A DNA stretch of 64,000 nucleotides from Candidatus Latescibacterota bacterium (lineage in GTDB: Bacteria; Latescibacterota; UBA2968; UBA8231): the NCBI GenBank assembly GCA_965203175.1, contig OZ241867.1, forward strand, positions 2,848,001-2,912,000, written 5' to 3'. Shown in pieces: positions 35,376-64,000 of the stretch. Position numbers and translations under genes: made by a program. A model generated the notes under the pieces. That model searched no databases and was not told the DNA's origin. It saw only the letters and a program-made list of their open reading frames with translations. Within the stretch, counting starts at the first letter, position 1; every line of letters begins with the position of its first letter.

Positions 35376-35376
35376 T

Positions 35377-43234: not shown

Positions 43235-43236
43235 GG

Positions 43237-45180: not shown

Positions 45181-47781
45181 ATGGGTATGCAGCGTATCAG
45201 CGTCGTATTAGTGCTTGGTTGGGCCGTGAGCGTCTCGGCCCAAGTCGGGCATCGGGTGACGGCGAGTCAGGTAGTAGTCAACAGCCGCGCCCACTGGCAG
45301 AACTGGAGTTTCCCACCGGGGGTGCTGGAACTAGGTGCCGACGGCTCAGTGCGGCCTCAGCACGTCCGCCGCGACATCAATGCGGTGCAAGATATCGTCG
45401 ATTACTTGCGCTTGCGCCCCCCGGAAAGAATCAAAAAAGACCCCGAAGACATTGTTCCACTCGATGCGGTACAGGGCGGGGCCACGGCAAATATCGCCGC
45501 GGTGCCCAACATTTTTGATGGAGATTTGACGACCTACTGGGAACCACTTGCGGCGAGCGAGGAGTCCGACCTCGCTTCGCAGTGGTGGTTCGTCGTTGAC
45601 TTGGGCCGGTTGGTGATCACTAAGAAGATCGTGCTCAAATTCGTCGCCGAGGATTTGGGAGACCCGTTCTTGCAGTTCGATGTGCTGGCCTCACAGGGCA
45701 ACAAGCCCAAGGGCAACCAGCGCTCGCCGCTGCCAGAGTTCAGCACTCTATTGCGCACCTTGCGGCCCAACAAGGAACAGCGCGTCTTCGAGATCGACAT
45801 GGACCAGTTGGGAGATGATTTTGTCGGCGCTGGTCTTCGCTTTGTGCAGATCGTGGTGACCGGCAGCGATTTCGACCGCGGCCGGGAGCTAAGCCAAGCC
45901 GAGTACGAGGCCCTGCCGGTAGGAGAGCAAGGGGCGATCGACTACTTCAAAAAACTCGCTGGGGGCCGCGAAACCTTAGTGGAGCAGAAGGTTTTTGAGC
46001 GTCTCGACGCCGACCGCCAAGGCGCGATCCGCTACTATCGCAAGGAGCGTCCGCGGCTGGCGGAGTTGGAGGTTCTGGCCGAGGGAGACGAGATCCTTTC
46101 CGAGATGCTGGAGCGCGGTGGTTCCGGCACGGCGACGCAGACGGCCTCAATCAGCAACATGATCGACGGAGAAATCGAAAGCAGGGTCCAATTTATCACC
46201 CGCTTTGGCCGGGGATCACTGAATTCCCCGGAGGGTGGGGTCTTGTTCGATTTGGGGGCCTTCTACTGGATCGATGCCTTCCGCATCGCCTACGCTGGCG
46301 CGGCCTTTCAAGCCTACCATCTAGATTTTTCCGACGGCAGCCTCGAAGCCGACGGCAGCCTCAAGTGGTCGGTCGCGGTCAATCGCACGGAAAACAGCGA
46401 CTATGGCAGCAGTCAGGGGTTGGGTTTCGGCCTCTACGAGGGCAACGACTTCGAGCGGATTAAGGCGCGCTTCTTTCACCTCGTCTGGAAGCAGTATGAG
46501 GCGGGCGGCGGCTTTGGCGGTGGTTCTGGTCAGCCAGCCGAGATTCAGCTCTACGGGCGGGGGTATCAGCCAGAAGTGACTTTGACATCCGACTTGGTGC
46601 GCTTGGGCGGCAGCCGCAACCTGTCCTCCATTGAGTGGGACGCTGATACGCCGCCGAGGACCAGCGTCGTGTTGCAAACTCGCACCGGCAACGAACTCGA
46701 CGAAGTGTTGCGCTACTTCAAAAAAGACGGTACTGAAGTCACCGAGGCCGAATACAACAAGCTGCTGTCGATTTTTCGCGGCGACACGGTTGGTGAGGAG
46801 GTCGCCGGTGGGGACTGGAGCGATTGGAGTGCGCCCTACGAAGACGCCAGCGGTAGCCCGATTACCTCACCTAGCCCGCGCGAATTTCTCGAGATCCGCG
46901 CGGTCCTGCTATCGGACGATCCAGAGGTCAGTGCAACGCTGCGCTCGATTCGGCTCAACTTCACCAACCCAGTCGCGCAAGAGCTCATCGGCGAAGTTGT
47001 TCCTTTCGAGGTCGAGAACCTCGGCGAGGAGCAGCGTTTTTCCTTTTACGTGCGCCCGGACTTCGCCCGCAGTGACCCCGGCTTCGATCAGTTGCTTTTG
47101 ATCGCTCCTACTGATATGAACCTGCGCTTCGAGGGTCTTTATGGCGGTACAGCAGCCGAACTAGCAGCCGGGGAGCCGGCTGGGACGGCTCTTGCTGCTG
47201 AGGTCGTGCCTACTTCGGGCGACAGCTTGCAGGTAGCGTTTTCGCCGCTGGGGCCTGACTCGGGGGTTGAGGTGATGCGGTTGGACTTTTCGACCGCGCT
47301 GTTTTCGACCGGAGCAGTGATGCAGGCGTCGTTGCAGAATAGTGCAGAGGGGGAGGGCGGCTGGCAGCGGGTGGATCCAGGAGAGGCCGTCGCGGAGGTG
47401 GTCAGCAATACGACGACGTTAGTGGGCAAAGTCGCGTCCGGATCTTTGGTGCAAGCGGTGTCGGTGGAGCCTGCGGCGTTTACACCTAACGGCGATGGCA
47501 TTAACGACGAGACTTCGTTCCGCTTTGCAGTGGTCAAGGTGGGCGATGACAGTCCGGTGGAGGTGCTCGTCTACGATCTGCAAGGGCGGCTGACAAGGCG
47601 GCTGGTCGAGCAGCGGGCGTTGAGCACGGGATCGTATGGGATCGCTTGGGATGGGCGGGATGAGCAGGGGGCGGTGGTGCCCCCGGGAGTCTATCTGGCG
47701 CGCGTGCGAGTCGATACGGACACCGAGGGTGCCCGCATTGGACGCGACGAAATTTTCCGCACCATCGCCGTTACCTATTAG
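45181..47781 (+). CDS. Type-B array protein B1 (secreted; two discoidin-like domains, Ig-like domain, FlgD/CHU_C-like CTD)
   Basis: Signal peptide, 'FDGDLTTYWEP', 'WWFVVDLGR', 'PRLAELEV', 'FDLGAFYWID', 'EIQLYG.GY', 'WSDWS' and 'FTPNGDGIND'. Ends IAVTY. Confidence 0.85.
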   Translation: MGMQRISVVLVLGWAVSVSAQVGHRVTASQVVVNSRAHWQNWSFPPGVLELGADGSVRPQHVRRDINAVQDIVDYLRLRPPERIKKDPEDIVPLDAVQGGATANIAAVPNIFDGDLTTYWEPLAASEESDLASQWWFVVDLGRLVITKKIVLKFVAEDLGDPFLQFDVLASQGNKPKGNQRSPLPEFSTLLRTLRPNKEQRVFEIDMDQLGDDFVGAGLRFVQIVVTGSDFDRGRELSQAEYEALPVGEQGAIDYFKKLAGGRETLVEQKVFERLDADRQGAIRYYRKERPRLAELEVLAEGDEILSEMLERGGSGTATQTASISNMIDGEIESRVQFITRFGRGSLNSPEGGVLFDLGAFYWIDAFRIAYAGAAFQAYHLDFSDGSLEADGSLKWSVAVNRTENSDYGSSQGLGFGLYEGNDFERIKARFFHLVWKQYEAGGGFGGGSGQPAEIQLYGRGYQPEVTLTSDLVRLGGSRNLSSIEWDADTPPRTSVVLQTRTGNELDEVLRYFKKDGTEVTEAEYNKLLSIFRGDTVGEEVAGGDWSDWSAPYEDASGSPITSPSPREFLEIRAVLLSDDPEVSATLRSIRLNFTNPVAQELIGEVVPFEVENLGEEQRFSFYVRPDFARSDPGFDQLLLIAPTDMNLRFEGLYGGTAAELAAGEPAGTALAAEVVPTSGDSLQVAFSPLGPDSGVEVMRLDFSTALFSTGAVMQASLQNSAEGEGGWQRVDPGEAVAEVVSNTTTLVGKVASGSLVQAVSVEPAAFTPNGDGINDETSFRFAVVKVGDDSPVEVLVYDLQGRLTRRLVEQRALSTGSYGIAWDGRDEQGAVVPPGVYLARVRVDTDTEGARIGRDEIFRTIAVTY

Positions 47782-47791
47782 AGGGGCATTA

Positions 47792-50404
47792 ATGATGACT
47801 CGATCATTGGTCCTAGCCGTGCTGATCGCTGGCACTGCGTTTGCCCAATCGGGCTACCGGATCACTGGAGATCAAGTGGTGGTTGACCGGCGCACGCACT
47901 GGCAAAGTTGGAACTTTCCGCCGGGGGTGCTGGATCTGGGCAGCAGTGGGACGGTGCAACCCCGGAGCCTGCGACGCGATATCAACGCCGTCGGTGACAT
48001 CGTCGCCAACTTGCAAGCCCGTCCGCCGGACGGCCTGAAGAAAGACCCGGAAGATATCGTCCTCGCCGACGCCATCTTAGGAGGGGTCCGCTCCAATGTC
48101 GCGGGTGTAGAAAACCTCTTTGACGGGGATATGACGACTTATTGGGAGCCGGATTCGCCGACCGAGGAGTTGGATTTGGGCACGCAGTGGTGGTTTATCG
48201 TCGATCTGGGGCGTTTGGTGATGGCTAAGAAGCTGGTGCTCAGGTTCGTTTCCGAGGAGTTGGGCGATCCTTTCTTGCAGTTCGACCTGTTGGCTTCGCA
48301 GGGCAATATTCCCAAGGGCAACCAGCGTTCGCCTACGCCTGAGTTTACCACTATCCTGCGCACGTTAAAGCCCAACAAGAAGCAGCGGGTGTTCGAACTG
48401 GTCACCAATTCGGAGCCGACCTTTGCTGGAACGGGTATGCGCTTTGTGCAGATCATCATTACCGGTAGTGACTTTGATCGCGGACGAGAGGTGAGTCCGG
48501 CTCAATACGAGGCTTTGCCGGCGGATGATCAGGGGGCGATTGAGTTTTACAAGAAGCAGGTTGATGGCAGCGAGACGGTGGTGTCGCCGGAGATTTACGA
48601 GTTGCTGACATCCGCGCAGCAAGGGCCGATTCGCTACTTCCAGCGGGAGCGTCCACGATTGGCGGAATTGGAGGTTTGGGCTGAAGGCGACGAGATCCTG
48701 ACGGGGACGTTGGCACGGGGGGGATATGGTACGGCGACGCAGACGGCGGCGATCAACAACTTGATTGACGGTCAGATCGAGAGCAAGGTTCAATTTCTCT
48801 ATTCTTTTGGTCGCGGTTCGTTCAAAGATCCAGAGGGCATTGTCTTTTTTGACTTGGGAGCCTTTTACTGGATCGATGCTTTTCGCATGGCCTACGGTGG
48901 CTCGCCATTTAAGGACTATCGGCTCGACTTTTCCGACGGCAGCCTCGAAGCGGACGGCACCCTCAAGTGGACTACTACGGGGACGCGCCAGACCTCCGCC
49001 CCTACCGCGGTGGGGTCGAAGTGGGAAAGCGAGACTAATCTCAGATTCGGAACCTATGAGGGTAACGATTTCGAGCGGGTAAAAGCGCGCTTCTTTCGCT
49101 TGGTGTGGGAGCAGGTCGAAAGCGCCACAGCCCGCGGCGGAGCCACCGGCCAGCCGTCGGAGATCCAGCTTTACGGCCAGGGGTATCACCCAGAGGTGGC
49201 GCTGACCTCCAATTTGATCCGCTTGGGCGGCAGTCGCAACCTGCTGTCGATTGAGTGGGACGCTGATACGCCGCCGGGCACCAGTGTCGTGTTGCAGACC
49301 CGCACCGGCAACGAACTCGACGAGGTGCTGCGCTACTTCAAAAAAGACGGTACTGAAGTCACCGAGGCCGAATACAATAAGCTGCTGTCGATTTTCCGCG
49401 GCGACACGGTCGGCGAGGAGGTCGCTGGTGGGGACTGGAGCGACTGGAGTGCGCCCTATGAAGACGCCAGCGGCAGTCCGATTACCTCGCCTAGCCCGCG
49501 GGCGTACTTGGAGGTGCGGGCGGTGCTGCGGTCGGACACACCTGATTACAGTGCGACGCTGCGGTCGATTCGCTTGAATTTTACCAATCCGGTCGCACAG
49601 GGGCTGTCTGGCGAAGTGACTCCCTTTGCGGTGGAGCAGTTGGGGCAGCCGCAGCGATTTTCGCTCTATGTGCGCCCAGAGTTTGCCGCAGGCGATCCGG
49701 GGTTTGATCAGTTGTTAGTAGTCGCCCCGTCGGATATGCGTTTGGCTTTTGAGGGGGTATATGGCGGTCCGGCGGCGTCACTGGCTGCTGACGTAGGAGC
49801 CGATTGGGCGTTGGACGGAGCAGAGGTTGTGCCTACCGCTGGCGATAGTTTGCAGGTAGCGTTTTCGGAGATAAATCCATCTTCGGGGGTTGAGGTGGTG
49901 CGGTTGGATTTTTCGACGGCTTTGTTTTCGACCGGAGCAGTGATGCTGGCGTCATTGCAGAACAGTGCGGAGGGCGAGGGCGGCTGGCAGCGGGTGGACC
50001 CGGGCGAGGCGGTCGCGGAGGTGGTCAGCAATACGACGACGCTGGTAGGCAAAGTCGCGTCTGGGCCTTTGGTGCAAGCAGTGTCGGTGGTGCCCTCGGT
50101 GTTTACGCCCAATGGTGATGGCATTAACGATGAGGCATCGTTCCGCTTTACGGTGGTCAAGGTGGGCGATGACAGTCCGGTGGAGGTGCTCATCTACGAT
50201 CTGCAAGGACGGCTGGTGCGGCGGCTGGTCGAGCGGCGGGCGTTGAGTACGGGATCGTATGGGGTCGCTTGGGACGGACGCGACGAACAGGGCGAAGTCG
50301 CTCCACCGGGGGTCTATCTAGCGCGGCTGCGCGTGGACACCGATACTGAGGGATCCCAAATAGGCAATGCCGAGATTTTCCGCACCATCGCCGTTGCCTA
50401 CTAG
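47792..50404 (+). CDS. Type-B array protein B2
   Basis: ATGATG at 47792 after GAGGGG, signal peptide, collinear with B1. Ends IAVAY. Confidence 0.85.
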   Translation: MMTRSLVLAVLIAGTAFAQSGYRITGDQVVVDRRTHWQSWNFPPGVLDLGSSGTVQPRSLRRDINAVGDIVANLQARPPDGLKKDPEDIVLADAILGGVRSNVAGVENLFDGDMTTYWEPDSPTEELDLGTQWWFIVDLGRLVMAKKLVLRFVSEELGDPFLQFDLLASQGNIPKGNQRSPTPEFTTILRTLKPNKKQRVFELVTNSEPTFAGTGMRFVQIIITGSDFDRGREVSPAQYEALPADDQGAIEFYKKQVDGSETVVSPEIYELLTSAQQGPIRYFQRERPRLAELEVWAEGDEILTGTLARGGYGTATQTAAINNLIDGQIESKVQFLYSFGRGSFKDPEGIVFFDLGAFYWIDAFRMAYGGSPFKDYRLDFSDGSLEADGTLKWTTTGTRQTSAPTAVGSKWESETNLRFGTYEGNDFERVKARFFRLVWEQVESATARGGATGQPSEIQLYGQGYHPEVALTSNLIRLGGSRNLLSIEWDADTPPGTSVVLQTRTGNELDEVLRYFKKDGTEVTEAEYNKLLSIFRGDTVGEEVAGGDWSDWSAPYEDASGSPITSPSPRAYLEVRAVLRSDTPDYSATLRSIRLNFTNPVAQGLSGEVTPFAVEQLGQPQRFSLYVRPEFAAGDPGFDQLLVVAPSDMRLAFEGVYGGPAASLAADVGADWALDGAEVVPTAGDSLQVAFSEINPSSGVEVVRLDFSTALFSTGAVMLASLQNSAEGEGGWQRVDPGEAVAEVVSNTTTLVGKVASGPLVQAVSVVPSVFTPNGDGINDEASFRFTVVKVGDDSPVEVLIYDLQGRLVRRLVERRALSTGSYGVAWDGRDEQGEVAPPGVYLARLRVDTDTEGSQIGNAEIFRTIAVAY

Positions 50405-50413
50405 AGGGCATTA

Positions 50414-53020
50414 ATGATGCATCGATTATTGATCCTAGCCGTGCTGATCGCTGGCACTGCGTTTGCCCAATCGGGCTACCGGATCACTGGAGATCAAGTG
50501 GTGGTTGACCGGCGCACGCACTGGCAAAGCTGGAACTTTCCACCGGGGGTGCTAGATCTGGGCAGCAGCGGGACGGTGCAACCTCGAAGTCTGCGGCGCG
50601 ATATCAACGCCGTCGGTGACATCGTCGCCAACTTGCGAGCCCGTCCGCCGGATGGCCTGAAGAAAGAGCCAGAAGACATCGTCCTCGCCGATGCCATCTT
50701 AGGGGGTGCCCGCTCCAATGTCGCAGGCGTAGAAAACCTCTTAGACGGGGATATGACGACTTATTGGGAGCCGGATTCGCCGACCGAGGAGTTGGATTTG
50801 GGCACGCAGTGGTGGTTTATCGTCGATCTGGGGCGTTTGGTGATGGCTAAGAAGCTGGTGCTCAGGTTCGTTCCTGAGGAGTTGGGCGATCCTTTCTTGC
50901 AGTTCGACCTGTTGGTCTCACAGGGCAATATTCCCAAGGGCAACCAGCGTTCGCCTACGCCCGAGTTTACCACCATCCTGCGCACGTTAAAGCCCAACAA
51001 GAAGCAGCGGGTGTTCGAGTTGGTCACCAATTCGGAGCCGACCTTTGCTGGAACGGGTATGCGCTTTGTGCAGATCATCATTACCGGTAGTGACTTTGAT
51101 CGCGGACGAGAGGTGAGTCCGGCTCAATACGAGGCTTTGCCGGCGGATGATCAGGGGGCGATTGAGTTTTACAAGAAGCAGGTTGATGGCAGCGAGACGG
51201 TGGTGTCGCCGGAGATTTACGAGTTGCTAACATCCGCGCAGCAAGGGCCAATCCGCTACTACCGCAAGGAGCGTCCCCGGTTGGCGGAATTGGAGGTTTG
51301 GGCAGAGGGCGACGAGATTCTGACGGGGACGTTGGCTCGGGGGGGGTATGGCACGGCGACGCAGACGGCGGCGATCAACAACTTGATTGACGGTCAGATC
51401 GAGAGCAAGGTTCAGTTTATCTATTCTTTTGGTCGCGGCTCGTTCAAAGATCCAGAGGGCATTGTCTTTTTTGACTTGGGAGCCTTTTACTGGATCGACG
51501 CGTTTCGTCTAGCTTACGGCGGCTCGACGTTTAGGGACTACCGGCTCGACTTTTCCGACGGCAGCCTTGAAGCAGACGGCAGCCTTAAGTGGGTCACCGG
51601 AGGGACGCGCGTACCGACTCAGGATGTCACGGCCTCTGCCGGCCGCGTGACCAACCTCGGTTTCGGGGTGTACGAGGGTAACGATTTCGAGCGGATAAAA
51701 GCGCGCTTCTTTCGCTTGGTGTGGGAGCAGTATGAAAGCGCCACAGCCCGCGGCGGAGCCACCGGCCAACCAGCCGAGATCCAGCTCTACGGTCAGGGGT
51801 ATCACCCCGAGGTAGCGCTGACCTCCAATTTGATCCGCTTGGGCGGCAGTCGCAACCTGCTGTCGATTGCCTGGGATGCCGACACGCCGCCGGGCACCAG
51901 CGTCGTGTTGCAGACCCGCACCGGCAACGAACTCGACGAAGTGTTGCGCTACTTCAAAAAGGACGGCACCGAAGTCACCGAGGACGAATACAACAAGCTG
52001 CTGTCGATTTTCCGCGGCGACACCATCGGTGAAGAGGTTGCTGGTGGAGATTGGAGCGACTGGAGTGCGCCCTACGAAGACGCCAGCGGCAGTCCGATTA
52101 CTTCACCCTCACCGCGGGCGTACTTGGAGGTGCGGGCGGTGTTGCGGTCGGACACGCCCGATTACAGTGCGACGCTGCGGTCGCTGCGGTTGCATTTTGC
52201 CAATCCGGTTGCGCAGGGACTATCGGGCGAAGTAACCCCCTTTGCAGTAGAGCAGTTGGGGCAGCCGCAGCGGTTTTCGCTTTATGTGCGTCCCCAGTTT
52301 GCCGCTGGTGATCCGGGATTTGATCAGTTGTTAGTGGTAGCCCCGTCGGATATGCGTTTGGCGTTTGAAGGGGTGTATGGCGGTCCAGCGTCGGCCTTAG
52401 CTGCTGAGGTAGGCACCGATTGGGCGTTGGATGGAGCAGAGGTCGTGCCTACTGCTAGTGATAGTTTGCAGGTGGCGTTTTCGGCGATAGGTCCCTCCTC
52501 GGAAGTTGAGGTGGTGCGGCTGGACTTTTCAACGGCTTTGTTTTCGACGGGAGCGGTATTGCAGGCGTCGCTGCAGAATAGTATGAAGGGAGAGGGGGGG
52601 TGGCAGCGGGTGGATCCAGGCGAGGCAGTGGAAGCTATTGCCAGTAACACGACGACGCTGGTGGGGGCGGTGCAAGAGGGTGCCTTAGTGCAGGCGGTGG
52701 AAGTGGAGCCGAGCGTGGTTACGCCCAATGGCGACGGGGTCAACGACGAGATGGGGTTTCACTTCCAGGTAGTCAAGGTGGACGGAGCTAGTCCGGTGGA
52801 GTTGTTGATCCACGATGTGCAAGGACGGCGAGTGCGGCGCTTAGTCGAGCAGCGTCCGACGAGCACGGGGGTCTACGGGATGGAGTGGGACGGTCGGGAT
52901 GAGCAGGGGGTGGTGGTGCCCCCGGGAGTCTATCTGGCGCGAGTGCGAGTAGATACGGACACCGAGGGTGCCCGCATTGGACGCGCCGAAATTCTACGCA
53001 CCATTGCCGTTGCCTATTAG
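50414..53020 (+). CDS. Type-B array protein B3 (recent tandem duplicate of B2)
   Basis: First ~1 kb nearly identical to B2 at DNA level. CTD begins VTPNGDGVND. Ends IAVAY. Confidence 0.85.
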   Translation: MMHRLLILAVLIAGTAFAQSGYRITGDQVVVDRRTHWQSWNFPPGVLDLGSSGTVQPRSLRRDINAVGDIVANLRARPPDGLKKEPEDIVLADAILGGARSNVAGVENLLDGDMTTYWEPDSPTEELDLGTQWWFIVDLGRLVMAKKLVLRFVPEELGDPFLQFDLLVSQGNIPKGNQRSPTPEFTTILRTLKPNKKQRVFELVTNSEPTFAGTGMRFVQIIITGSDFDRGREVSPAQYEALPADDQGAIEFYKKQVDGSETVVSPEIYELLTSAQQGPIRYYRKERPRLAELEVWAEGDEILTGTLARGGYGTATQTAAINNLIDGQIESKVQFIYSFGRGSFKDPEGIVFFDLGAFYWIDAFRLAYGGSTFRDYRLDFSDGSLEADGSLKWVTGGTRVPTQDVTASAGRVTNLGFGVYEGNDFERIKARFFRLVWEQYESATARGGATGQPAEIQLYGQGYHPEVALTSNLIRLGGSRNLLSIAWDADTPPGTSVVLQTRTGNELDEVLRYFKKDGTEVTEDEYNKLLSIFRGDTIGEEVAGGDWSDWSAPYEDASGSPITSPSPRAYLEVRAVLRSDTPDYSATLRSLRLHFANPVAQGLSGEVTPFAVEQLGQPQRFSLYVRPQFAAGDPGFDQLLVVAPSDMRLAFEGVYGGPASALAAEVGTDWALDGAEVVPTASDSLQVAFSAIGPSSEVEVVRLDFSTALFSTGAVLQASLQNSMKGEGGWQRVDPGEAVEAIASNTTTLVGAVQEGALVQAVEVEPSVVTPNGDGVNDEMGFHFQVVKVDGASPVELLIHDVQGRRVRRLVEQRPTSTGVYGMEWDGRDEQGVVVPPGVYLARVRVDTDTEGARIGRAEILRTIAVAY

Positions 53021-53048
53021 CGCTTCTCCTCTCAGCGGAGAGAGTACT

Positions 53049-55010
53049 ATGCGGGTATCGCTGATTCTGCTGGCCCTTGGTTTCCTTTGGAGCCAAGCGT
53101 CGGCGTTGACGATTTATCGGATCGGTGGGCAGAGCCTGCCGCCGCCGGAATTGGACGCGCCCTACGAATTCGTGTCGTTGGCTTGGGCCGATGCCGACGA
53201 AGCCCTCGACGGTCAGATCAAGTTGGTCGAAGTAGAAACCGACTTCATTCATCCGCAGCGCCTAGATCCTGCCGTCAACATCGCACCGCAGATCTACGAC
53301 TTGGACGGCGGCACCGTGTTCGTCATGCATTCGCACACTGGCTGGACCGAGAACTTAGAGGACGACGATCACTTCATCTTTGATGGCGATCCCGAAACGG
53401 TCTATCTGGGCGATGGCCATTGGCCGTGGGGGGCCATTTTCTTTGGCAGACGCTCCCTCGATGAGGGTTGGGGCAAGGGACGATGGATCTACACCAAGGT
53501 CTGGATCTTCGACCTCGGCGGCCTATTCACCCTGCAGCGCATTCGACTTTTCCCCCGCGAAAAGTTTGTCAACGAGCGCTTTATCCAGCGATTCAGAGTC
53601 GGCACCAGCGATGGCGATCCCCTCAAGGACGGCACCCGCGATCACGCGATCACGCATCGGGGCTTTTTTTTCGACTTCGATATCGCCTATGACATCAAGG
53701 AAAACTCGAGTGGGGTGTTGGAACTGGCGATGCCCTCCGAGCCGGTCCAGCGTCTGCTGCTCGATGCCCCAGAAAACTCAAGAGGGATCTGGGAGCTAGC
53801 TGAGTTCGAGATATACGGGTTTGGCTTTGCCAACGAGGCCACCTACCGCTCGAACATCATTGATCTCGGTGAGGCGGTTGCACTGGGTCCCATAATTTGG
53901 TCGGGAAGGCAAGATCCAGAGGCCGCAGTCGAATTGCGTACGCGCAGCGGTGACAGCGCCGACCCGAACAACTACTGGCGCTTCACGTTCAGGGGCGACG
54001 AGAAGTCACTCTTCGACCAGCAAGGGAAGCCCCTCACCCGGCGGAGTTACGCCAAACTCAACAAGGGAGAGAAGGCCGGGATTACCTATGATACCCGCAA
54101 CTGGGACTCGTGGAGTCCGGCCTACGACTTCAGCGCCGGGGTGGGCGATATACAGGCGAACAAACCGCGTCGCTACGTCCAGTTCAGCGTTGACTTCTAC
54201 TCGGTCCGCGACCAGGGCAGTCAACTCGACTACGTGCAGTTTGCGGTGTCGGACCCGCCAATTGCGACCCAAGCCCTAGCGGAAATCACCCCAGGCGCGG
54301 TGCGGGCAGGCGAGCCAGCGGCATTTACCTATGTGTTGACTCCAATGTTTAGCCCCCGAGATTTGGGCTTCGATTCGATTGAAATCGATACTCCGAGCCT
54401 CCCCGGCGGGGTGGATGCGGTGCGGATCAGCGGCGAGGAGGTGGGGTTTGAGATCCGGCGGCTGGACGAACGCGGCTTTGAATTGGGGATTCCCCGGATC
54501 GACGCGACGCGAACCGGCGAGCGGATCGAGGTCGATTTCCGCGCCGAAGTCTTCCAGTTTGGGACGCTTTTTACCGGGCGGGTTTTCGATAGCGAGAAAC
54601 CACACGAGGTGCGGCAGGCGCTGACGGCCGGTGATGCGGACCCGCTCATAGAGGGCGATCGCTTGAGCGTAGATATTCTGGATTTGGCCCAAAAGAGCAT
54701 CAAAGGGTTGCGCGTGCAGGCCGGCGTTTTTACCCCCAACGGCGACGGGATTAACGATGTGGTCTCGATCGAGTGCGACTTGCTGAACGTAGAGGCCGCA
54801 CCCGTGGCGATCCAGATATTTGATTTGGCGGGGCGCGAGATCGACCAGATCGACGGCGGTGAGCAAGTCAGCGGGCGGTTCACCGCAGCGTGGGACGGGC
54901 GCGATGTCGATGGGAGACTTGCGCCGCCGGGAACGTATCTGCTGCAGCTCACCGTAGAGACGGACGAAGGGGTTGATCGGGCACAACGAGTTGTCGGCAT
55001 GGCTTATTAA
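53049..55010 (+). CDS. Type-A array protein A3
   Basis: ATG 53049 after GGAGAG, ALTIYRIGG, an extended aromatic loop and 'FTPNGDGIND'. Ends VGMAY. Confidence 0.85.
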   Translation: MRVSLILLALGFLWSQASALTIYRIGGQSLPPPELDAPYEFVSLAWADADEALDGQIKLVEVETDFIHPQRLDPAVNIAPQIYDLDGGTVFVMHSHTGWTENLEDDDHFIFDGDPETVYLGDGHWPWGAIFFGRRSLDEGWGKGRWIYTKVWIFDLGGLFTLQRIRLFPREKFVNERFIQRFRVGTSDGDPLKDGTRDHAITHRGFFFDFDIAYDIKENSSGVLELAMPSEPVQRLLLDAPENSRGIWELAEFEIYGFGFANEATYRSNIIDLGEAVALGPIIWSGRQDPEAAVELRTRSGDSADPNNYWRFTFRGDEKSLFDQQGKPLTRRSYAKLNKGEKAGITYDTRNWDSWSPAYDFSAGVGDIQANKPRRYVQFSVDFYSVRDQGSQLDYVQFAVSDPPIATQALAEITPGAVRAGEPAAFTYVLTPMFSPRDLGFDSIEIDTPSLPGGVDAVRISGEEVGFEIRRLDERGFELGIPRIDATRTGERIEVDFRAEVFQFGTLFTGRVFDSEKPHEVRQALTAGDADPLIEGDRLSVDILDLAQKSIKGLRVQAGVFTPNGDGINDVVSIECDLLNVEAAPVAIQIFDLAGREIDQIDGGEQVSGRFTAAWDGRDVDGRLAPPGTYLLQLTVETDEGVDRAQRVVGMAY

Positions 55011-56143: not shown

Positions 56144-56144
56144 C

Positions 56145-56528
56145 ATGGCCCATGACGAAGCAGCAGCGGTAATCGCAGCAGCGAAAATCGCCACCGCCGC
56201 GTATTGCGCCGGCGATATAGACGCCTTTCTGCCGTATATCCACCCCCAACGCACTACCTTTGGACCCGACGGCAGTCGTCTGGCGGCTTTCGACGCTAAA
56301 GCGCTGCGGGCCGGCATGGCCGCAGGCCGTGTCCAGGCGCAGGTGGAATGGCGGGATCTCCAAGCCACCGTACATGGCGATGTCGCGGTCAGTACGGGGT
56401 ATCTGGTCGGCACTTGGACCATCGGCGACAGCGTCGAGGAAGGTACCTGGCGCGAAACCATCGTCTGGCTCAAGCAGGACCAGCGCTGGCAGGTTTCCCA
56501 TTTGCATGTATCCGCGTGTCTGACCTGA
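56145..56528 (+). CDS. NTF2/SnoaL-like (DUF4440) protein
   Basis: ATG after AAGGAG. 'AYCAGDIDAF', 'HGDVAV.TGY' and 'RETIVWLKQD.RWQVSHLHVS'. Confidence 0.85.
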   Translation: MAHDEAAAVIAAAKIATAAYCAGDIDAFLPYIHPQRTTFGPDGSRLAAFDAKALRAGMAAGRVQAQVEWRDLQATVHGDVAVSTGYLVGTWTIGDSVEEGTWRETIVWLKQDQRWQVSHLHVSACLT

Positions 56529-56561
56529 GAAGGCTGAACCAAGAAGCGAACGGAGGTCAAA

Positions 56562-57344: not shown

Positions 57345-57365
57345 GCGTTATACAAGGAGCAGACA

Positions 57366-58613
57366 TTGAAAAAGATTCCACTTTGCTTGATCGGCTGCGG
57401 CGGTATGGGCCATCGCCATATCCTCGCCTACAAAGAACTGGAGAACAGCGGCATCGGCAATATCGAGCTGATGGCCGTATGCGACCTCAACCCCAAGAAC
57501 GCGGATCTGGGTCGGCGGGAAGTAGAGCGCCTCTTCGGTCGCACGCCCTTGGTCTTCACCGATCTGGGCGAGGCCGTGTCGCACCCCGACATTGCGGCGG
57601 TGGACGTGGCCACTGATCCCGCGGTCCACCACCAAGTGGCGGTGCCGGCGCTGGAGGCCGGCAAGCATGTCTTGTGCGAAAAGCCGCTGGGCATCACCAT
57701 TCGCGCCTGCACGGCGATGATTGCGGCGGCCGAAAAGAGTGGCGTGGTGCTGGCCACGGCTGAGAATTTGCGGCGCGACCCACCCAATAGATTGGCGCGC
57801 GCGATCCTCGACCACGGGCTTTTGGGCGACCCTTACCTGATGATCCACAACTGTCTAGGCGGCAACAACAAGATGGTCATCACCCCGTGGCGGCATCTCA
57901 AGGACAAAGGGGCGATCGGTCTAGATATGGCGGTGCATTTTACCGATATCGTGCAGTACTACATGGGTGCCTTCGACCAGATCTACGGCACTGGTTGGAT
58001 CATCGAGCCGGTGCGCTATAAGCCCGATGATTCCGGTCTCCAACTCGAGTCCTATGTCGAGCGGCTCAAGACCTTTCCCGATTCGATTGAAGCTACCGGC
58101 GAGGATTCGGTCTGCGCGATGTACAAGATGCAGTCCGGGGCCATGGTGCAGTTTACCTACGCGGCCGGCGGTCGCGGCAGCACCGGTTTTGAGCGCAGCG
58201 TACACGGCCGCTTGGGGGCGTTGTATGCGCCTGGGGACCGCAATGGCCGGCCGGTGGTCCTGCGCCGCGAGGGCCAACAGTTTGAGGGCGCAGAGATTTT
58301 GCCGTTATTGCCCGATTTTCAGATGAGCGAAATCACCGAGCGGCTTTTCGGCGCGAAGGTGGTGACCTACGAGCTGGACTTCCCGCCGATTGATGCCAAG
58401 CACATGGCCATCGAGATGCACGACTTCGGCGAGGCGGTCCTCAAGGGCACCAAACCCGAGGTCGATGGCCATCTGGGCATGACGGCGGTGGCGGCGATAT
58501 ACGGGGCCTATGAGTCGATCCTCGCTGGCCGGGCCGTGACTATGGATGAGATCCTCTCGGGCCAAGTGCGGGCCTACCAACAAGAGATCGACGCAGCGCT
58601 CGGGCTGGACTGA
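57366..58613 (+). CDS. Gfo/Idh/MocA-family oxidoreductase
   Basis: TTG start after AAGGAG. 'LIGCGGMG', 'ALEAGKHVLCEKP' and 'DMAVH'. Confidence 0.92.
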   Translation: MKKIPLCLIGCGGMGHRHILAYKELENSGIGNIELMAVCDLNPKNADLGRREVERLFGRTPLVFTDLGEAVSHPDIAAVDVATDPAVHHQVAVPALEAGKHVLCEKPLGITIRACTAMIAAAEKSGVVLATAENLRRDPPNRLARAILDHGLLGDPYLMIHNCLGGNNKMVITPWRHLKDKGAIGLDMAVHFTDIVQYYMGAFDQIYGTGWIIEPVRYKPDDSGLQLESYVERLKTFPDSIEATGEDSVCAMYKMQSGAMVQFTYAAGGRGSTGFERSVHGRLGALYAPGDRNGRPVVLRREGQQFEGAEILPLLPDFQMSEITERLFGAKVVTYELDFPPIDAKHMAIEMHDFGEAVLKGTKPEVDGHLGMTAVAAIYGAYESILAGRAVTMDEILSGQVRAYQQEIDAALGLD

Positions 58614-58647
58614 AGATTTATTATACGGGGAGCAAGGAGACGCAACC

Positions 58648-59805
58648 ATGGAGCGCAGTACTGACCGCATCTTGACTACCCACGTTGGCAGCTTGGCACG
58701 TCCTGTGGACTTGCTCGACCTGATGAAGGCCAAAGTCAACGGCAGACCCTACGACGAGGAGGTCTATGCTCGGCGAATTTCGGCTGCCGTGGCCGAGGTT
58801 GTCAGCAAGCAGGTCGAGAGCGGCATCGACATTGTCACCGATGGCGAGCAGAGTAAGCTCGGTTTCTCGACGTACGTGAGCGAGCGGTTGGCCGGTTATG
58901 AAGCGAGACCGGGTGCGATCGACTCCGCTGAATTTTCGCAGGAGGTGGCCGCTTTCCCGGAGTATTACGAGCGCTACTTTGGCGAGGCCATGCACGGGGG
59001 TGCCGTCGCCAAAATAAACCCCGTCGCGTGCATCGGCCCCGTCAGTTATAAGGGGATTGATGCCCTGAACGAGGACATTGAAAATCTCAAAGCCGCGGTC
59101 GCGGGAGTGGACAAGGTGGATGTCTTTATGCCCTCGGTGGCGCCGAGTGGGGTCGGCGGAAACGAGTATTATCCGACTGAGGAGGAGTATCTGCAGGCGG
59201 TCGGCGAGGCGATGCGCACGGAGTATAAGGCGATCGTCGATGCGGGCTTCATCGTGCAGATCGACGATCCCTGGATGACAGTGGTCCGCGGCGACGGGAG
59301 CTTGAGCCTAGACGACCGCCTGCGGAAGATCGAACTGTCCGTCGAGGTTCTCAACCACAGCTTGCGCGGTATTCCCCCCGAGCAGGTGCGGCTGCATACT
59401 TGCTACGGGATCAACGAAGGTCCGCGCATCCACGACGCGGCGCTCAAGGACATCGTGGGGATCATGCTCAAGGTGAACGCCGGTGCCTATTCGTTCGAGG
59501 CCGCCAACCCGCGGCACGAACACGAGTACCACGTCTGGGAAGACGCCAAACTGCCGGAGGGCAAGTTGATTATTCCAGGAATGGTCGCACACGCGAGCAA
59601 TATCGTCGAGCATCCCGAACTCATCTGCGAGCGCATCGTCCGCTTCGCCAACATCGTGGGACGAGAGAACGTGATCGCTGGGACCGATTGCGGCTTTTCG
59701 ACCCAGGCTACCTATACCCCAGAAGTCCATCCGACCGTGGTGTGGGCCAAGTTCCAAGCCATAGCCACCGGTGCACAGCTGGCGACGAAGCAGCTCTGGG
59801 GATGA
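58648..59805 (+). CDS. Cobalamin-independent methionine synthase II family (core MetE-like) protein
   Basis: 'ILTTHVGSLARP', 'GIDIVTDGEQ', 'QIDDP', HTCYG (HxC), 'FEAANPRHEHE' and 'GTDCGF'. ATG after AAGGAG. Confidence 0.92.
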   Translation: MERSTDRILTTHVGSLARPVDLLDLMKAKVNGRPYDEEVYARRISAAVAEVVSKQVESGIDIVTDGEQSKLGFSTYVSERLAGYEARPGAIDSAEFSQEVAAFPEYYERYFGEAMHGGAVAKINPVACIGPVSYKGIDALNEDIENLKAAVAGVDKVDVFMPSVAPSGVGGNEYYPTEEEYLQAVGEAMRTEYKAIVDAGFIVQIDDPWMTVVRGDGSLSLDDRLRKIELSVEVLNHSLRGIPPEQVRLHTCYGINEGPRIHDAALKDIVGIMLKVNAGAYSFEAANPRHEHEYHVWEDAKLPEGKLIIPGMVAHASNIVEHPELICERIVRFANIVGRENVIAGTDCGFSTQATYTPEVHPTVVWAKFQAIATGAQLATKQLWG

Positions 59806-59901
59806 GCCTGTCGCCGGGCATCGCTGGCCACGGCGATCAAACGCGATCGGGCCAAGATATGCTCTTCGTCGCAGGAAGGTTTTTATAGGGAGCCCCCATT
59901 C

Positions 59902-61848
59902 ATGTACCAACGCCTCAGAGATTCCTTAGCTGTATGGTGCGGGTTTTTGCTGTTCATTGTCGGCCCTCTCGACGCGCTGACAATCTACCGGCTCGGGGGT
60001 AGCGATTTGCCGGCTCCAGAGTTAGCGGCGCTTGAGGGGGTGGAATTCGTGCAACTAGCGTGGGCCGACGTAGCTGAAGATCGGCACGGCCAGACCGACC
60101 TAATCGAAGTAACCCCCAATCACATCGCACCGCGCCAACTCGACCCGACGGTCAACCTGACGCCGCTGTTGCCCCAGCCCGATTTCCTCGGGGATATTTT
60201 CTATCTGACTTGGATTGGCTGGGGTGGTCCCGATGTCGATGACTGGTTTATCTGGGACGAGGATCCCAATACGGTCTATCTGGGCGATGGGCACTTCGCG
60301 ATGCATGGGCCCAAACACAAAAGTCTGATTTTCGACCTCGGCGGCCTGTTTTTTCTCGAGCGAATCAAGTTCTACCCCCGCGAAAGACATCGGCACGACC
60401 GCTTCGTGGAGAGCTTTACCATTGGCATCAGTGACGGCGATCCGTTCAAAGATCCCCATCGAGAGCTACAGGCTGGAGTGGGGGGATTCGGCAGGGGGTC
60501 TGTCGTCGCCTTTGACGTGCTCTACGACATCAGGGAAAACACCGAGCCTATCATTGAGTTAGAGTTGCCAGCGCAACCTGTACAGAAGGTACTCTTTCGA
60601 GCAGCGGAGAATACGCGGGGCATCTGGGAGCTGGCCGAACTTGAACTCTACGGCGCGGGTTTTGCCCCCTTTGCTGGCTACCAAAGCAATGTCATTGATC
60701 TAGGCCGAGCGGTGTCGCTGGGCGATCTGAGCTGGTCGGGTGTGGTCGAGCCGGGTGCCCGCGTTGCCTTGACTATGCGCAGCGGCGCTACGCCGACGCC
60801 CAACATCTACTGGCGCTTCACCTTTCGCGGCGATGAGCAAAGTCGCTTCGATACCCAGGGCCGGGTGTTGACGCGCAAAGCCTATAACAAGCTCAACAAG
60901 GGCGAGCGGGCCGGGATCACGCCCGATACTCAGCAGTGGGAAGCTTGGAGCCAGGCGTACGATTTCGCGGACAGTACGGGGGCGATGCAGGCGAACCAGC
61001 CTAGGCGCTACGTGCAACTGCGCGCCGACTTTGAATCGCTCAAGGAGGCGGGCGGGCGGCTGGACTATGTACAGTTCAGCGTCTCGGACCCGCCGGTGGC
61101 CACCCAAGTGCTAGCCGAGATCTCTCCGGCGCAGGTCAAAGCGGGCGAGGTGACTTCCTTTACCTATGCGGTATTGCCTCAATTCGAAGAGGACGATTTG
61201 GGATTTGACACCATTGAGATTGAGACGCCCGTGCAGGTGAGGGAGGTTGACGCGGTGCGCATTAGCGAGATGGAGGTAGGCTTTGACGTCCTGCGCTCGG
61301 ACGCGGAGGGCTTTGCCCTGCGCATCCCGCGCATGGACTTGCAGCGCACCGAAGAACTGGTTGAGGTGGATTTTCAGGTGGAAGTGTTCAAGTTCGGCAC
61401 GATGTTCACCGGCCGGGTATCGGACAGCGAAAGGCCCTTTGAGGTGCATCAGCGGCTCACCGCAGGCGACGCCGATCCGCTAGTCGAGGGCAACACGCTG
61501 AACGTAGGTTTGGTCGAAGTGGAACACAAGGCAGCCAACGCGCTCAGACTAGCCTCGCCCGTGTTTACGCCCAATGGCGACGGAGTCAACGACGAGTTGC
61601 AGATCGAATACGAGCTGTTGAATCTCTTGGGAGCGGTACCAGTGGCATTGGATCTGTACGATTTGTCGGGCCATCGCTTGGGAGCAGTGTATCGCGGTAC
61701 AGCGCAGAGCGGCCGATTTCGCTTGGAGTGGGATGGGGTGTTGGCAAGTGGGGAACGGGCAGTGCCGGGGTGCTACTTGTTGCGCCTAGCGGTGACTAGC
61801 GACCGAGGTGGAGAAATCCTCCAGCGCGTCATCGCGCTGGCTTATTAG
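59902..61848 (+). CDS. Type-A array protein A4
   Basis: ALTIYRLGG, closest to A2 in its N-terminal half, 'FTPNGDGVND'. Ends IALAY. Confidence 0.85.
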   Translation: MYQRLRDSLAVWCGFLLFIVGPLDALTIYRLGGSDLPAPELAALEGVEFVQLAWADVAEDRHGQTDLIEVTPNHIAPRQLDPTVNLTPLLPQPDFLGDIFYLTWIGWGGPDVDDWFIWDEDPNTVYLGDGHFAMHGPKHKSLIFDLGGLFFLERIKFYPRERHRHDRFVESFTIGISDGDPFKDPHRELQAGVGGFGRGSVVAFDVLYDIRENTEPIIELELPAQPVQKVLFRAAENTRGIWELAELELYGAGFAPFAGYQSNVIDLGRAVSLGDLSWSGVVEPGARVALTMRSGATPTPNIYWRFTFRGDEQSRFDTQGRVLTRKAYNKLNKGERAGITPDTQQWEAWSQAYDFADSTGAMQANQPRRYVQLRADFESLKEAGGRLDYVQFSVSDPPVATQVLAEISPAQVKAGEVTSFTYAVLPQFEEDDLGFDTIEIETPVQVREVDAVRISEMEVGFDVLRSDAEGFALRIPRMDLQRTEELVEVDFQVEVFKFGTMFTGRVSDSERPFEVHQRLTAGDADPLVEGNTLNVGLVEVEHKAANALRLASPVFTPNGDGVNDELQIEYELLNLLGAVPVALDLYDLSGHRLGAVYRGTAQSGRFRLEWDGVLASGERAVPGCYLLRLAVTSDRGGEILQRVIALAY

Positions 61849-61862
61849 AGGACAAGAGTGCA

Positions 61863-64000
61863 ATGAAGACCATTTGGACTTTTGCCTGCGCCTTGTTGTT
61901 GGGCGCGGTGTGCGCCAGCGCTCAAGGAAAGGGCCATCGCGTCACCGCCGACCAAGTCGTAGTCAATACTCAACAGCACTGGCAGACCTGGTCCTTCGGG
62001 ACGGGCACCCTAGACATTGGGACTGACGGTGAAGTTCGGCCACGGCGGCTGCGCAAGAATATCAATGCCGTGGAGAATGCCCGCGAATTCTTGCGCCTGA
62101 ATCCTCCCAATTACATCAAAAAAGACGCGGCCGATATTGAACTCAGCGACGGAATCCGCGCGGGCTCCAATGCGTCGGGTGTACTGGCTCTCTTTGACGG
62201 CGATATGGAGACTTATTGGGAACCTGACGCGCTCGAGTTAGGTGTCGATTTGGCGACGCAGTGGTGGTTTATCGTCGATTTGGGCCGCTTCGTCATGGCC
62301 CGCAAGATCGTGCTCAAGTTTGTCGATGAAGCACTGGGCGACCCCTTCTTGCAGTTTGATGTGCTGGTCTCGGAAGGCCGCCAACCCAAGGGCAACAGCC
62401 GTTCCGAGACACCGGAATTCAGACGCGTGGCGCGCACCTTGGTGCCCAACAAGCACCAGCGGCTCTTTGAGATCGAACTGGAGTACGCAGAAGAGTTTGC
62501 GGGCATGGGTCTGCGCTTCGTGCAGGTGCTCGTGACCGGCAGCGACTTTGCCCAAGGGCGGGAGATCAGCCGCGACGAGTACGAGGCCCTGTTAGAGGCA
62601 GACCGGGGGGCAATCCTCTATCACAAGCTGCTGCCGAACGGCAATGAGGCCGCGGTCAAAAAGGAGGTCTATGACCGACTCGAAGCGTCGCGGCAAGGTT
62701 CCGTGCGCTATTTTGTGCGCGAAAGGCCGCGCTTGGCCGAGTTGGAAGTGTGGGCCGAAGGCGACGAGATCCTGATCAATACGGTCGAGCGCGGGGGCAT
62801 GGTCACCTCGACCCAATCGCTGGCGCTGGCGAGCCTGTTCGACGGCAATGTGCTCAGCTTCAGCGAGGTAATTTTCATCTTCTCTCCCGGGCAATTAAAG
62901 TCACCAGAGGGCGAGGTGTTTTTCGATATGGGAGCCTCGTTCTGGATCGACGCCTTCCGTATGGCTCTGGGAGCGCGCCAGCGCAATTTTGAGGGTTATA
63001 GACTGGATTTCTCCAATGGTGAGCGCGAGGCAGACGGCAGCCTCAAGTGGACTTCTGCGGCCGCAGTGAGTGGTGCGGAAGTCCTCGGTGCCGGCACGAT
63101 TGGTACCCAAAGCGTAATGGGCAACGACTTTAGCCCCCTAAGGGCGCGTTTTTTCCGCTTCGTGTGGAATCAGATTGTGCGCGGGGTGGGCAATAGCGGT
63201 GCGGCCATTTTGGCTGATCCGTCCGAGTTGCAGCTCTACGGGGAAGGGTTTATGTCGGAGGTAAGCCTGACTTCGGATCTGGTGCGGCTGGGCGGCAGCC
63301 GCAATTTGGTCTCGCTCGAATGGGACGCGGATGTGCCGCCGGGCACGAGTGTGCTGGTGCAAACGCGCACTGGCAACGAACTAGCCGAGAACCTGCGCTA
63401 TTTCAAAAAAGACGGCACTGAAGTGAGCAAAGACCAGTACGATAAGCTGCTCTCGATATTCAAGGGGGATATTATAGCCGAGGAAGTAGTGGGCGGAGAT
63501 TGGAGCGACTGGAGCCAGCCGGGCGAAGATCCCAGCGGCAGCCCGATTGCTTCGCCGTCGCCGCGCGAGTTCCTAGAGATCCGAGCAACCCTGTTGTCGG
63601 ACGCTCCTGCAGTGAGCGCGACCTTGCGTTCGATCCGGCTCAATTTTACGCATCCGGTGGCGCAGAGCCTGACGGGAGAGGTGGCACCGGCGGTGGTAGA
63701 GACGCTGGGGGAAGAGCAGCGCTTTTCGCTTTTTGTGCGGCCGAACTTCGCCCCCCGAGATCCCGGCTTTGACGAGTTCTTGCTGGTGGCTCCGGCGGAC
63801 ATGAGGCTTGGGTTCGACGGTCTGTATGCTGGTGCGGGCGAGGTGTTGGCCAGCCGCGATCTGGACGGGTTGGCGGTGGCTGATGTCGAGGTTGTGGCGA
63901 CGAGCGGCGACAGCCTGCGCTTGGCTTTTCCGCTAATCGGTCCGGAGTCAGGGGTGGAGGTGTTGCGGCTGGACTTTACCACGGCACTGTTTGCGGCCGG
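61863..64000 (+). CDS. Type-B array protein B4 (3' truncated by the window end; absent from the ORF track)
   Basis: Manual translation from ATG 61863 gives MKTIWTFACALLLGAVCASAQGKGHRVTADQVVVN...FDGDMETYWEP...QWWFIVDLGR...RPRLAELEVWAEGDEIL...GGDWSDWS...LRLDFTTALFAA, with no stop before 64000. Confidence 0.88.
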   Translation, partial: MKTIWTFACALLLGAVCASAQGKGHRVTADQVVVNTQQHWQTWSFGTGTLDIGTDGEVRPRRLRKNINAVENAREFLRLNPPNYIKKDAADIELSDGIRAGSNASGVLALFDGDMETYWEPDALELGVDLATQWWFIVDLGRFVMARKIVLKFVDEALGDPFLQFDVLVSEGRQPKGNSRSETPEFRRVARTLVPNKHQRLFEIELEYAEEFAGMGLRFVQVLVTGSDFAQGREISRDEYEALLEADRGAILYHKLLPNGNEAAVKKEVYDRLEASRQGSVRYFVRERPRLAELEVWAEGDEILINTVERGGMVTSTQSLALASLFDGNVLSFSEVIFIFSPGQLKSPEGEVFFDMGASFWIDAFRMALGARQRNFEGYRLDFSNGEREADGSLKWTSAAAVSGAEVLGAGTIGTQSVMGNDFSPLRARFFRFVWNQIVRGVGNSGAAILADPSELQLYGEGFMSEVSLTSDLVRLGGSRNLVSLEWDADVPPGTSVLVQTRTGNELAENLRYFKKDGTEVSKDQYDKLLSIFKGDIIAEEVVGGDWSDWSQPGEDPSGSPIASPSPREFLEIRATLLSDAPAVSATLRSIRLNFTHPVAQSLTGEVAPAVVETLGEEQRFSLFVRPNFAPRDPGFDEFLLVAPADMRLGFDGLYAGAGEVLASRDLDGLAVADVEVVATSGDSLRLAFPLIGPESGVEVLRLDFTTALFAA

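Follow-up and report, generated by a model that had tools for sequence, protein, structure and literature searches.

Our subject is a short variable segment, which we call the cassette, in each of four genes (B1 to B4) of a Candidatus Latescibacterota bacterium. The genes lie in a 64,000-nucleotide stretch of its genome (the window: GenBank assembly GCA_965203175.1, contig OZ241867.1, positions 2,848,001 to 2,912,000 of the forward strand). We consider it probable that the cassette is a fixed, paralogue-specific ligand-binding loop and forms an island of divergence under concerted evolution, in CBM32-like proteins that are probably exported by type IX secretion. It neither switches nor hypermutates, and what selection appears to maintain is the difference between paralogues, not continuing change. 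Positions below are those of the window unless given as genome positions.

B2 and B3 differ sharply in one short segment

The four genes lie on the forward strand. B1 (45181 to 47781; 866 amino acids), B2 (47792 to 50404; 870 amino acids), and B3 (50414 to 53020; 868 amino acids) stand in tandem; B4 (61863 to 64000, where the window end cuts it; whole gene, genome positions 2909863 to 2912466; 867 amino acids) lies farther on, and shorter A-type genes are interspersed. The original prediction, made from the letters of the window alone, described in each B gene a variable cassette between the conserved motifs EADG(S/T)LKW and GNDF. Its ranges translate as claimed, to SVAVNRTENSDYGSSQGLGFGL in B1 (46369 to 46434), TTTGTRQTSAPTAVGSKWESETNLRFGT in B2 (48971 to 49054), VTGGTRVPTQDVTASAGRVTNLGFGV in B3, and TSAAAVSGAEVLGAGTIGTQSV in B4 (63051 to 63116, the range that whole codons require). 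For B3 we use 51593 to 51673 in place of the earlier 51593 to 51670, this being the tract swapped relative to B2; its unalignable core is about 13 codons. In a protein alignment, both anchors are conserved, and the segment that they enclose is unlike in all four copies.

B2 and B3 had been described as almost identical in the DNA of their first part, and they share 94% identity over the initial 1.1 kb. The reported length change between their cassettes is real as well (28 versus 26 residues). The proposed sliding-window comparison of this pair, run with codon-threaded windows of 20 codons each, revealed a sharp dip confined to the cassette: nucleotide identity was 0.37 in columns 401 to 420 and 0.48 in columns 411 to 430, against 0.83 to 1.00 in all windows before column 391 and 0.80 to 0.95 directly after the cassette. 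The two genes differ at 48 of 84 positions in the cassette versus 164 of 2064 elsewhere in columns 1 to 720 (Fisher P = 1.1e-28), and the maximum in any other nonoverlapping 28-codon window was 35 differences, in the C-terminal part. In three other species, B2 and B3 differ at 46/84, 48/84, and 45/84 cassette positions and show the same contrast with the rest of the gene.

At the level of letters, B2 and B3 are near identical until AAGTGG, lack similarity over a core of about 40 nucleotides, and become alike again at GAC(T/C)AA(T/C)CTC. The truly unalignable core amounts to about 13 to 15 codons, and the edges (VTGGTR..., ...TNLxFG) are partly common. An origin of the B3 core by frameshift or inversion was rejected: the alignment left the core without residual similarity, and other frames and the other strand of the B2 core, compared by eye, gave nothing convincing. 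Immediately 5' of every cassette is a 12- to 14-nucleotide direct repeat, GACGGCAGCCT(C/T), with a spacing of 18 nucleotides (46331 to 46362, 48935 to 48964, and 51557 to 51586), which encodes a conserved DGSL-xx-DGSL.

When the 22 full-length paralogues encoded in this genome were compared in windows of 15 residues, the lowest mean pairwise identity, 0.06 versus 0.38 protein-wide, fell on the cassette (B3 amino acids 401 to 415). Variation had been said to concentrate in the second domain, and the three least conserved windows all lie there: the cassette window, amino acids 332 to 346 (51407 to 51451; identity, 0.11), and amino acids 438 to 452, the loop after FF..VW (51725 to 51769; identity, 0.12). 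Next come amino acids 658 to 672, 76 to 90, and 173 to 187. The loop after WIDAFR (amino acids 366 to 375; 51509 to 51538) varies in length among paralogues and has an identity of 0.25. That loops neighboring the cassette vary too was half right: they do so among B1, B2, and B4 but are nearly identical between B2 and B3 in the protein alignment.

Each cassette is conserved among orthologues, and that of B3 also in metagenome contigs

We drew orthologues from the genomes of relatives, G000 being the genome studied. Four congeneric sister species (G003, G011, G012, and G059) have B1, B2, and B3 in the same order; the contig of G014 stops within its second B gene. The B1 cassette is identical in six of seven species (G007 carries two changes), the B2 cassette shows 0 to 3 residue differences among six species, and the B3 cassette shows 0 to 2 among five (G000, G003, G011, G012, and G059). 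For B2, orthologue nucleotide identity in columns 401 to 440 is 0.95 to 0.99, which equals or exceeds that of most other windows. In alignment A2, whose 43 rows are B3, B2, and 41 database proteins, the B2-type cassette is nearly invariant in 36 database proteins that are 87 to 91% identical to B3, and recognizable variants of it occur in 4 more at 76 to 77% identity. Cassettes are kept even between genera; RQEATLKAVIEGNRF, for example, is found in both G050 and G015.

The ratio of nonsynonymous to synonymous differences per site (pN/pS), from Nei-Gojobori counts summed over orthologues, was 0.06 for the B1 cassette, 0.40 for the B2 cassette, and 0.15 for the B3 cassette, compared with 0.11 to 0.12 for the rest of the protein. 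Cassette pN itself (0.011 to 0.048) was about equal to that of the remaining protein (0.034 to 0.044).

DNA of the genus occurs in sponge and marine metagenome runs, and contigs from four such runs of four studies were aligned to positions 51300 to 51950. Contigs with the B3 cassette showed 0 to 2 differences, and there was a single variant within 51593 to 51673 (51613 A>T, in one run); the cassette flanks held many variants. In all four runs, B2-type contigs replaced the 81 letters of 51593 to 51673 (joint 51592->51674) by 87. Contigs may hide rare alleles, and therefore this result speaks for stability of the major form only. Allele diversity at the loop, which the original prediction had expected in populations, thus came down to one B3-cassette variant across these contigs. 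That prediction had been staked against two findings taken together, namely, B2/B3 divergence no higher here than in other surface loops and monomorphic populations; the populations are monomorphic as far as contigs show, but the divergence does exceed that of other loops.

The flanks of the cassette evolve in concert within genomes

When compared in windows of 40 codons, B2 and B3 of the same genome resemble each other more than they do their orthologues along much of the N-terminal half. Within G000, B2 and B3 have 0.96 to 0.99 nucleotide identity in columns 121 to 280, versus 0.82 to 0.93 for orthologues; G003 has its own B2-B3 tracts at 0.99 to 1.00 (columns 81 to 160, 281 to 320, and 481 to 520). 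In the cassette window (columns 401 to 440), within-genome identity is 0.58 to 0.64 in all four genomes. A tree of columns 26 to 390 paired the second and third genes of G000 (support, 100/99) and those of G003 (98/98). For the same columns, the approximately unbiased (AU) test rejected monophyly of the four B3 orthologues (log likelihood difference, 93.4; P = 0.0008). The tree of the cassette segment grouped genes by paralogue, with a single clade for the six B2 genes (support, 100). Both marks of concerted evolution with an island were therefore found: flanks that are closer within a genome, and an orthologue-conserved island that groups by paralogue. Because same-genome paralogues are closest to each other throughout the N-terminal 1.1 kb, we conclude that gene conversion homogenizes the flanks and leaves the cassette.

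The arrays are also mosaics. In the C-terminal part (columns 721 to 840), the B2 genes cluster with those of B1 (support, 100), and the B3 genes cluster with the lone B2-like gene that G001 and G007 each have (support, 100); segments of B1, B2, and B3 have therefore also been joined by unequal crossing-over or conversion. The B3 loop that follows FF..VW resembles that of B2 in G000 and G003 but that of B1 in G011, G012, and G059; it has therefore been exchanged, but the main cassette has not. G001 (locus L046) and G007 (locus L047) have only B1 and one B2-like gene, in which a B2 cassette is followed by a B3-type C terminus. It represents the ancestral form or else a B2::B3 fusion from a deletion between tandem copies.

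No donor or template for the cassette is found in the genome

The original prediction suggested a search for silent donor copies of the loop. None exists in the 6.58-Mb genome as searched with blastn-short and tblastn for the four cassettes: no cassette has a second copy, the best off-target blastn-short matches are 13 to 24 nucleotides, and the tblastn matches are at chance level. We found no inverted repeats flanking the cassettes, and no template-repeat-like copy of them in the genome. A word-based, region-restricted search of a collection of 5.8 billion proteins, in which distant matches can escape, found the B3 cassette only in the B3 protein cluster (81 members) and on no other backbone.

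The features of two kinds of programmed variation are accordingly missing. Neither the template repeat nor the nearby reverse transcriptase of a diversity-generating retroelement was seen, and the promoterless donors of silent-cassette antigenic variation were likewise not seen; of the population variants that such a system would show, the four runs gave one, in the B3 cassette, with the limit that contigs may hide rare variants. The sole RVT_1 match in the genome (genome positions 4456496 to 4457149, forward strand; 158.9 bits; open frame of 596 amino acids) is 1.55 Mb from the window.

The cassette probably lies at one end of a predicted CBM32-like domain

The second beta-sandwich domain of B3 (amino acids 296 to 465; 51299 to 51808) holds the cassette and has a predicted fold like that of CBM32 or F5_F8 type C domains. 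Whole B3 modeled by AlphaFold2 gave a mean predicted local distance difference test (pLDDT) score of 82.3 and a predicted template modeling score of 0.67, and the second domain folded alone gave a pLDDT of 85.4. Compared with known structures by VIA-align, the domain model matched 7nsn_B (Z, 15.7; root mean square deviation, 2.7; 138 residues aligned) and 4a42_B, which is CpGH89 CBM32-6 (Z, 15.4; root mean square deviation, 2.1; 124 residues aligned), followed by 2v72 (Z, 13.6), 1eut (Z, 13.0), and 2j1a (Z, 12.2). These matches, at Z of 12 to 15.7 over 120 to 138 residues, comprise CBM32 modules, fucolectins, a sialidase galactose-binding domain, and discoidin domains, and the predicted structure is the beta-sandwich (jelly roll) of the CBM32/F5_F8 type C fold. 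A profile of the 22 paralogue domains searched against the PDB matched 2j7m (E = 9.2e-4), 2j1a (E = 9.5e-4), and the sialidase 1eut (E = 1.7e-3). A Foldseek search of the PDB with whole B3 was uninformative, with generic multisandwich matches only (template modeling scores of 0.08 to 0.14).

The four variable segments of the domain (amino acids 332 to 347, 369 to 375, 400 to 418 [the cassette], and 439 to 452) are even numbers of strands apart in the predicted strand order and therefore should share one end; this strand order is also what would bring the loop at 332 to 346 to the end of the domain that bears the cassette. The conserved turns (DLGxxY, SDGSLxxDGSLKW, and ERIK) would fall at the opposite end of the model. 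Galactose contacts in the GH84C CBM32 (2j1a) come from loops that align with three of the variable segments. Sugar sites of CBM32 modules are built by apex loops of variable length (PMC5291390), and in our model the cassette end of the domain would be the apex at which such modules bind sugars. The suggestion that the cassette sits at a binding site is thus probably right as to location, given the predicted fold and strand order; the diversification attached to it is not.

The B proteins are likely type IX cargo

The B proteins have a signal-like N terminus, a first sandwich region, the second sandwich domain, further beta-rich domains, and a FlgD_ig/CHU_C-like C terminus. In B3 this last domain (52703 to 53017, forward strand), which is likely a type IX sorting domain, scores 34.3 bits for FlgD_ig and 23.8 for CHU_C, with a cutoff of 27 for each. 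FlgD_ig is above its cutoff in B1 to B3 (29.1 to 34.3 bits, with B1 at 29.1), and CHU_C passes only in B2 (28.6 bits), scoring 21.0 in B1. The only match to TIGR04131 is in an A-type gene (52968 to 55010; 26.2 bits), below the cutoff of 35. Elsewhere in the genome are PorU (NF033707; genome positions 2958744 to 2961917; 632.5 bits versus a cutoff of 420) and SprA (TIGR04189; 618 bits summed in one frame versus a cutoff of 200). From these matches, the B proteins are likely exported by type IX secretion.

The cassette position is the most divergent in most pairs of other arrays

When all 4668 ORFs (open reading frames) of at least 250 amino acids in the 6.58-Mb single-contig genome were searched by blastp, 166 matched B3 at E of <=1e-10; a genome-wide search with B3 reported 198 matches. 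The 166 ORFs make up roughly a twentieth of the genome, as estimated from ORF lengths, and 22 of the family ORFs are of the full-length B type. Many family ORFs form adjacent A/B pairs or longer arrays, for example at genome positions 5048277 to 5052858, 5470988 to 5475576, and 911206 to 915660. Among 1.84 billion cluster representatives, amino acids 20 to 760 of B3 had 788 matches at E of <=0.001 and 197 at E of <=1e-30. Worldwide, the family is a narrow one, with a strong expansion in one genus. Its public relatives are annotated as hypothetical proteins, with the source labels Gemmatimonadetes, Candidatus Latescibacteria, and Candidatus Handelsmanbacteria. A narrow search of the literature on Latescibacteria and sponge symbionts found no account of the B family and did not meet the word discoidin in the papers listed; a term search of one paper on sponge Latescibacterota (PMC12993501) found no mention there of FlgD, type IX, T9SS, discoidin, or paralog.

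We compared 17 paralogue pairs from another seven tandem arrays, which belong to seven genomes in four genera. In 15 of these, the 20-residue window at the cassette was the least similar of 42; in the remaining two, it ranked 2 and 17. The cassettes of these arrays again match between orthologues across species and genera. At deeper divergence, the cassette outpaces the scaffold, and its identity averages 0.55 where identity elsewhere is 75 to 80%. At the site of the B4 cassette, a 59%-identical cluster (P0065) carries TSAAAVSGAEVLGRSVIGTKSV.

A fixed specificity loop is the probable explanation

Our preferred explanation would work as follows. The cassette would be a loop, larger than usual, at the end of a CBM32/discoidin-like beta-sandwich where ligands bind, in proteins that probably leave the cell via type IX secretion and are then displayed on the surface or released. 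Each paralogue would have its own loop sequence, held in orthologues by purifying selection, while gene conversion and unequal crossing-over would keep evening out the surrounding DNA within each genome. It is because the surroundings are homogenized in this way that the loop would stand out so sharply between tandem copies. Conversions that overwrite the loop would not be retained, which presupposes that selection, not sequence heterology, guards the island. The island would then mark functional specialization, most likely a separate ligand for each paralogue. The loop would contact that ligand, which would be a glycan.

Several observations weigh against this explanation. Proteins P0051 and P0052, distant B1 orthologues with about 78% identity to B1, have another cassette (...GR(A/V)TNLSFGT), so the loops are not fixed for ever. 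The tail of that cassette matches the B3 cassette tail (GRVTNLSFG in G011), not that of B1, and this may reflect shared ancestry or an old transfer between neighboring paralogues; the genome of these proteins is absent among the 76 family genomes searched, where the best match was 81%. The pN/pS of the B2 cassette (0.40) exceeds that of the rest of the protein (0.12), though on small counts. The clade rejected by the AU test had been chosen after earlier trees were inspected. Contigs drop rare variants, and low-frequency cassette alleles may exist. As to structure, the second domain (amino acids 296 to 465) has no Pfam match at E of <=0.01, the PDB profile matches to CBM32 chains are marginal (E = 9e-4 to 1e-2), and the cassette has a pLDDT below 50 in both the whole-B3 (amino acids 402 to 416) and the domain models, so its shape and contacts are not predicted. 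Finally, high divergence by itself can halt conversion tracts, and the island could therefore persist without selection on function.

The original prediction read the segment as a product of ongoing diversification, that is, as hypervariable within populations through silent donors, a diversity-generating retroelement, or positive selection by phage or host. A loop that is unlike in all 22 paralogues, that has changed faster than its scaffold at depth, and that has a B3-like tail in distant B1 orthologues would suit this idea, and the genome does have one reverse transcriptase gene. That gene is remote from the window, however, with no template-repeat-like copy to go with it; no cassette has a second copy in the genome or flanking inverted repeats; the B3 type is confined to its own cluster in the word-based search; and the cassettes are conserved in four to seven species per paralogue (pN/pS, 0.06 to 0.40), with one B3-cassette variant in the four metagenome runs. 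Diversifying selection or cassette exchange as a continuing process is thus not supported. For recent time it is largely refuted, and we regard it as highly improbable. Drift offers another account, in which the cassette is an unconstrained spacer, a tolerant and indel-prone surface loop whose edges are merely where conversion tracts stop at heterology. Recombination is indeed known to halt at diverged sequence, loop length ranges widely among paralogues, and the cassette pLDDT is low. Drift should bring pN near pS, however, and the ratios of 0.06 for B1 and 0.15 for B3 are far from that; the B2 cassette is as conserved among orthologues as most windows or more so, and the same cassettes are kept across genera (RQEATLKAVIEGNRF). 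That 15 of 17 tandem pairs from four genera diverge most at the loop fits recurrent selection for difference, although a mutation-prone loop could also produce it. We therefore think a spacer unlikely.

The loop could also bind something other than a glycan. The apex loops may recognize a protein partner, one per paralogue, such as an adjacent A-type protein, a protein of the host matrix, or some further component of the cell surface. A-type and B-type genes do lie side by side repeatedly in the genome, and the structural matches include discoidin folds with nonsugar ligands (neuropilin, IFT25, muskelin, and CASPR2). The best sequence-profile matches, however, are all carbohydrate-binding modules or galactose-binding domains, and we give a protein ligand only a small chance. 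Going beyond a fixed specificity loop in each B protein, one may speculate, with more doubt than confidence, that the roughly 166 A/B genes amount to a hard-wired repertoire of lectin-like receptors that type IX secretion displays and whose specificity is set by combinations of apex loops. Conversion and unequal crossing-over would be its slow shuffling engine, with the loop after FF..VW recombined, the main cassette held by selection, and rare moves of cassettes between paralogues, at which the B3-like tail in distant B1 orthologues hints. Such a repertoire might provide bacteria that occur in sponge and marine metagenomes with germline-encoded recognition of host-matrix or prey glycans.

The fixed-loop explanation combines two known things, CBM32-like specificity loops and islands of divergence, here in a large uncharacterized family. 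The likeness to CBM32/F5_F8 type C domains (the Clostridium perfringens GH84C, GH89, and GH31 CBM32s and the Micromonospora sialidase domain) consists of the predicted beta-sandwich, weak profile similarity over the whole domain, and the gathering of sequence and length variation in loops at one end, which in CBM32 form the sugar site (PMC5291390). Unlike those modules, the B second domain is below every Pfam threshold, its cassette-equivalent loop is longer (10 to 35 residues versus about 8 in the aligned 2j7m), and it belongs to nonenzymatic multisandwich proteins with a type IX-like tail instead of lying beside a glycoside hydrolase. In PMC3728101, a short segment left unhomogenized by gene conversion is read as evidence of selection for distinct function. 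As in the B genes, the paralogues of such duplicated genes show more likeness inside one genome than the orthologues of different genomes do. The B island differs from such known cases in being only about 80 nucleotides long, covering one loop of a binding-type domain, and lying at the same position in arrays of four genera.

Silent cassettes of the pilE/pilS type and diversity-generating retroelements likewise place a short, sharply bounded variable segment in an otherwise conserved surface protein gene. In contrast to these programmed systems, the B cassettes have no donor or template in the genome, are (in the case of B3) essentially invariant in contigs of four metagenome runs, and are stable across species. 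Like type IX cargo with CHU_C/type B sorting domains, the B proteins have about 100 C-terminal residues that match FlgD_ig above and CHU_C near threshold, in a genome with PorU and SprA; they depart from that cargo in that the CHU_C cutoff is passed only in B2 and the TIGR04131 match is subthreshold and limited to an A-type neighbor.

An apparently hypervariable site thus becomes a testable hypothesis of specificity. With about 90% of the scaffold in common, B1 to B3 owe most of their differences to a single loop of about 26 residues, which makes them a natural loop-swap experiment for the ligand of an uncharacterized secreted family. They also offer a clean bacterial case of a functional island outlasting gene conversion, at the same position in several genera.

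Other features of the B locus

The start of B2 was chosen by alignment: 47792 (MMTRSL) is most likely, matching B3 and 870-amino-acid relatives. The ATG given in the ORF list is at 47636 and would add 52 codons (47636 to 47791) that overlap the end of B1. The translation and Pfam matches of B1 indicate a signal peptide, two discoidin-like sandwiches, an Ig-like middle, and the FlgD_ig/CHU_C-like C terminus. In the first domain of the B proteins (about amino acids 105 to 175), Pfam matches to PF00754 and PF22633 are 17.6 to 26.1 bits, under the cutoffs of 28.2 and 27.8; the F5_F8_type_C match of B1 is 20.2 bits (cutoff, 28.2). An NCBIfam scan of the B-locus proteins gave no match over threshold.

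All A-type genes of the locus are on the forward strand. A pair of them (662 and 648 amino acids; 41246 to 45177) is 5' of the B array, the one at 52968 to 55010 (680 amino acids) is 3' of B3, and one of 648 amino acids (59902 to 61848) is immediately 5' of B4. The order A then B around B4 is seen again at other sites of the genome. What A-type and B proteins have in common is only their C-terminal approximately 400 residues.

Farther 5', positions 30201 to 38355 (forward strand) contain a FlgD_ig/CHU_C-tailed protein of 781 amino acids that is matched by B3, followed by ORFs of 940 and 1013 amino acids without a Pfam match. An ORF of 2132 amino acids (14405 to 20803, forward strand) holds Peptidase_M28, MacB_PCD/FtsX, DUF6785 (414 bits), and DUF6784 in one frame. 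Between 20926 and 26843, 5' of the arrays, are a TonB-dependent receptor, a sulfatase, and an FG-GAP/ASPIC protein; such a neighborhood would suit the uptake of sulfated glycans.

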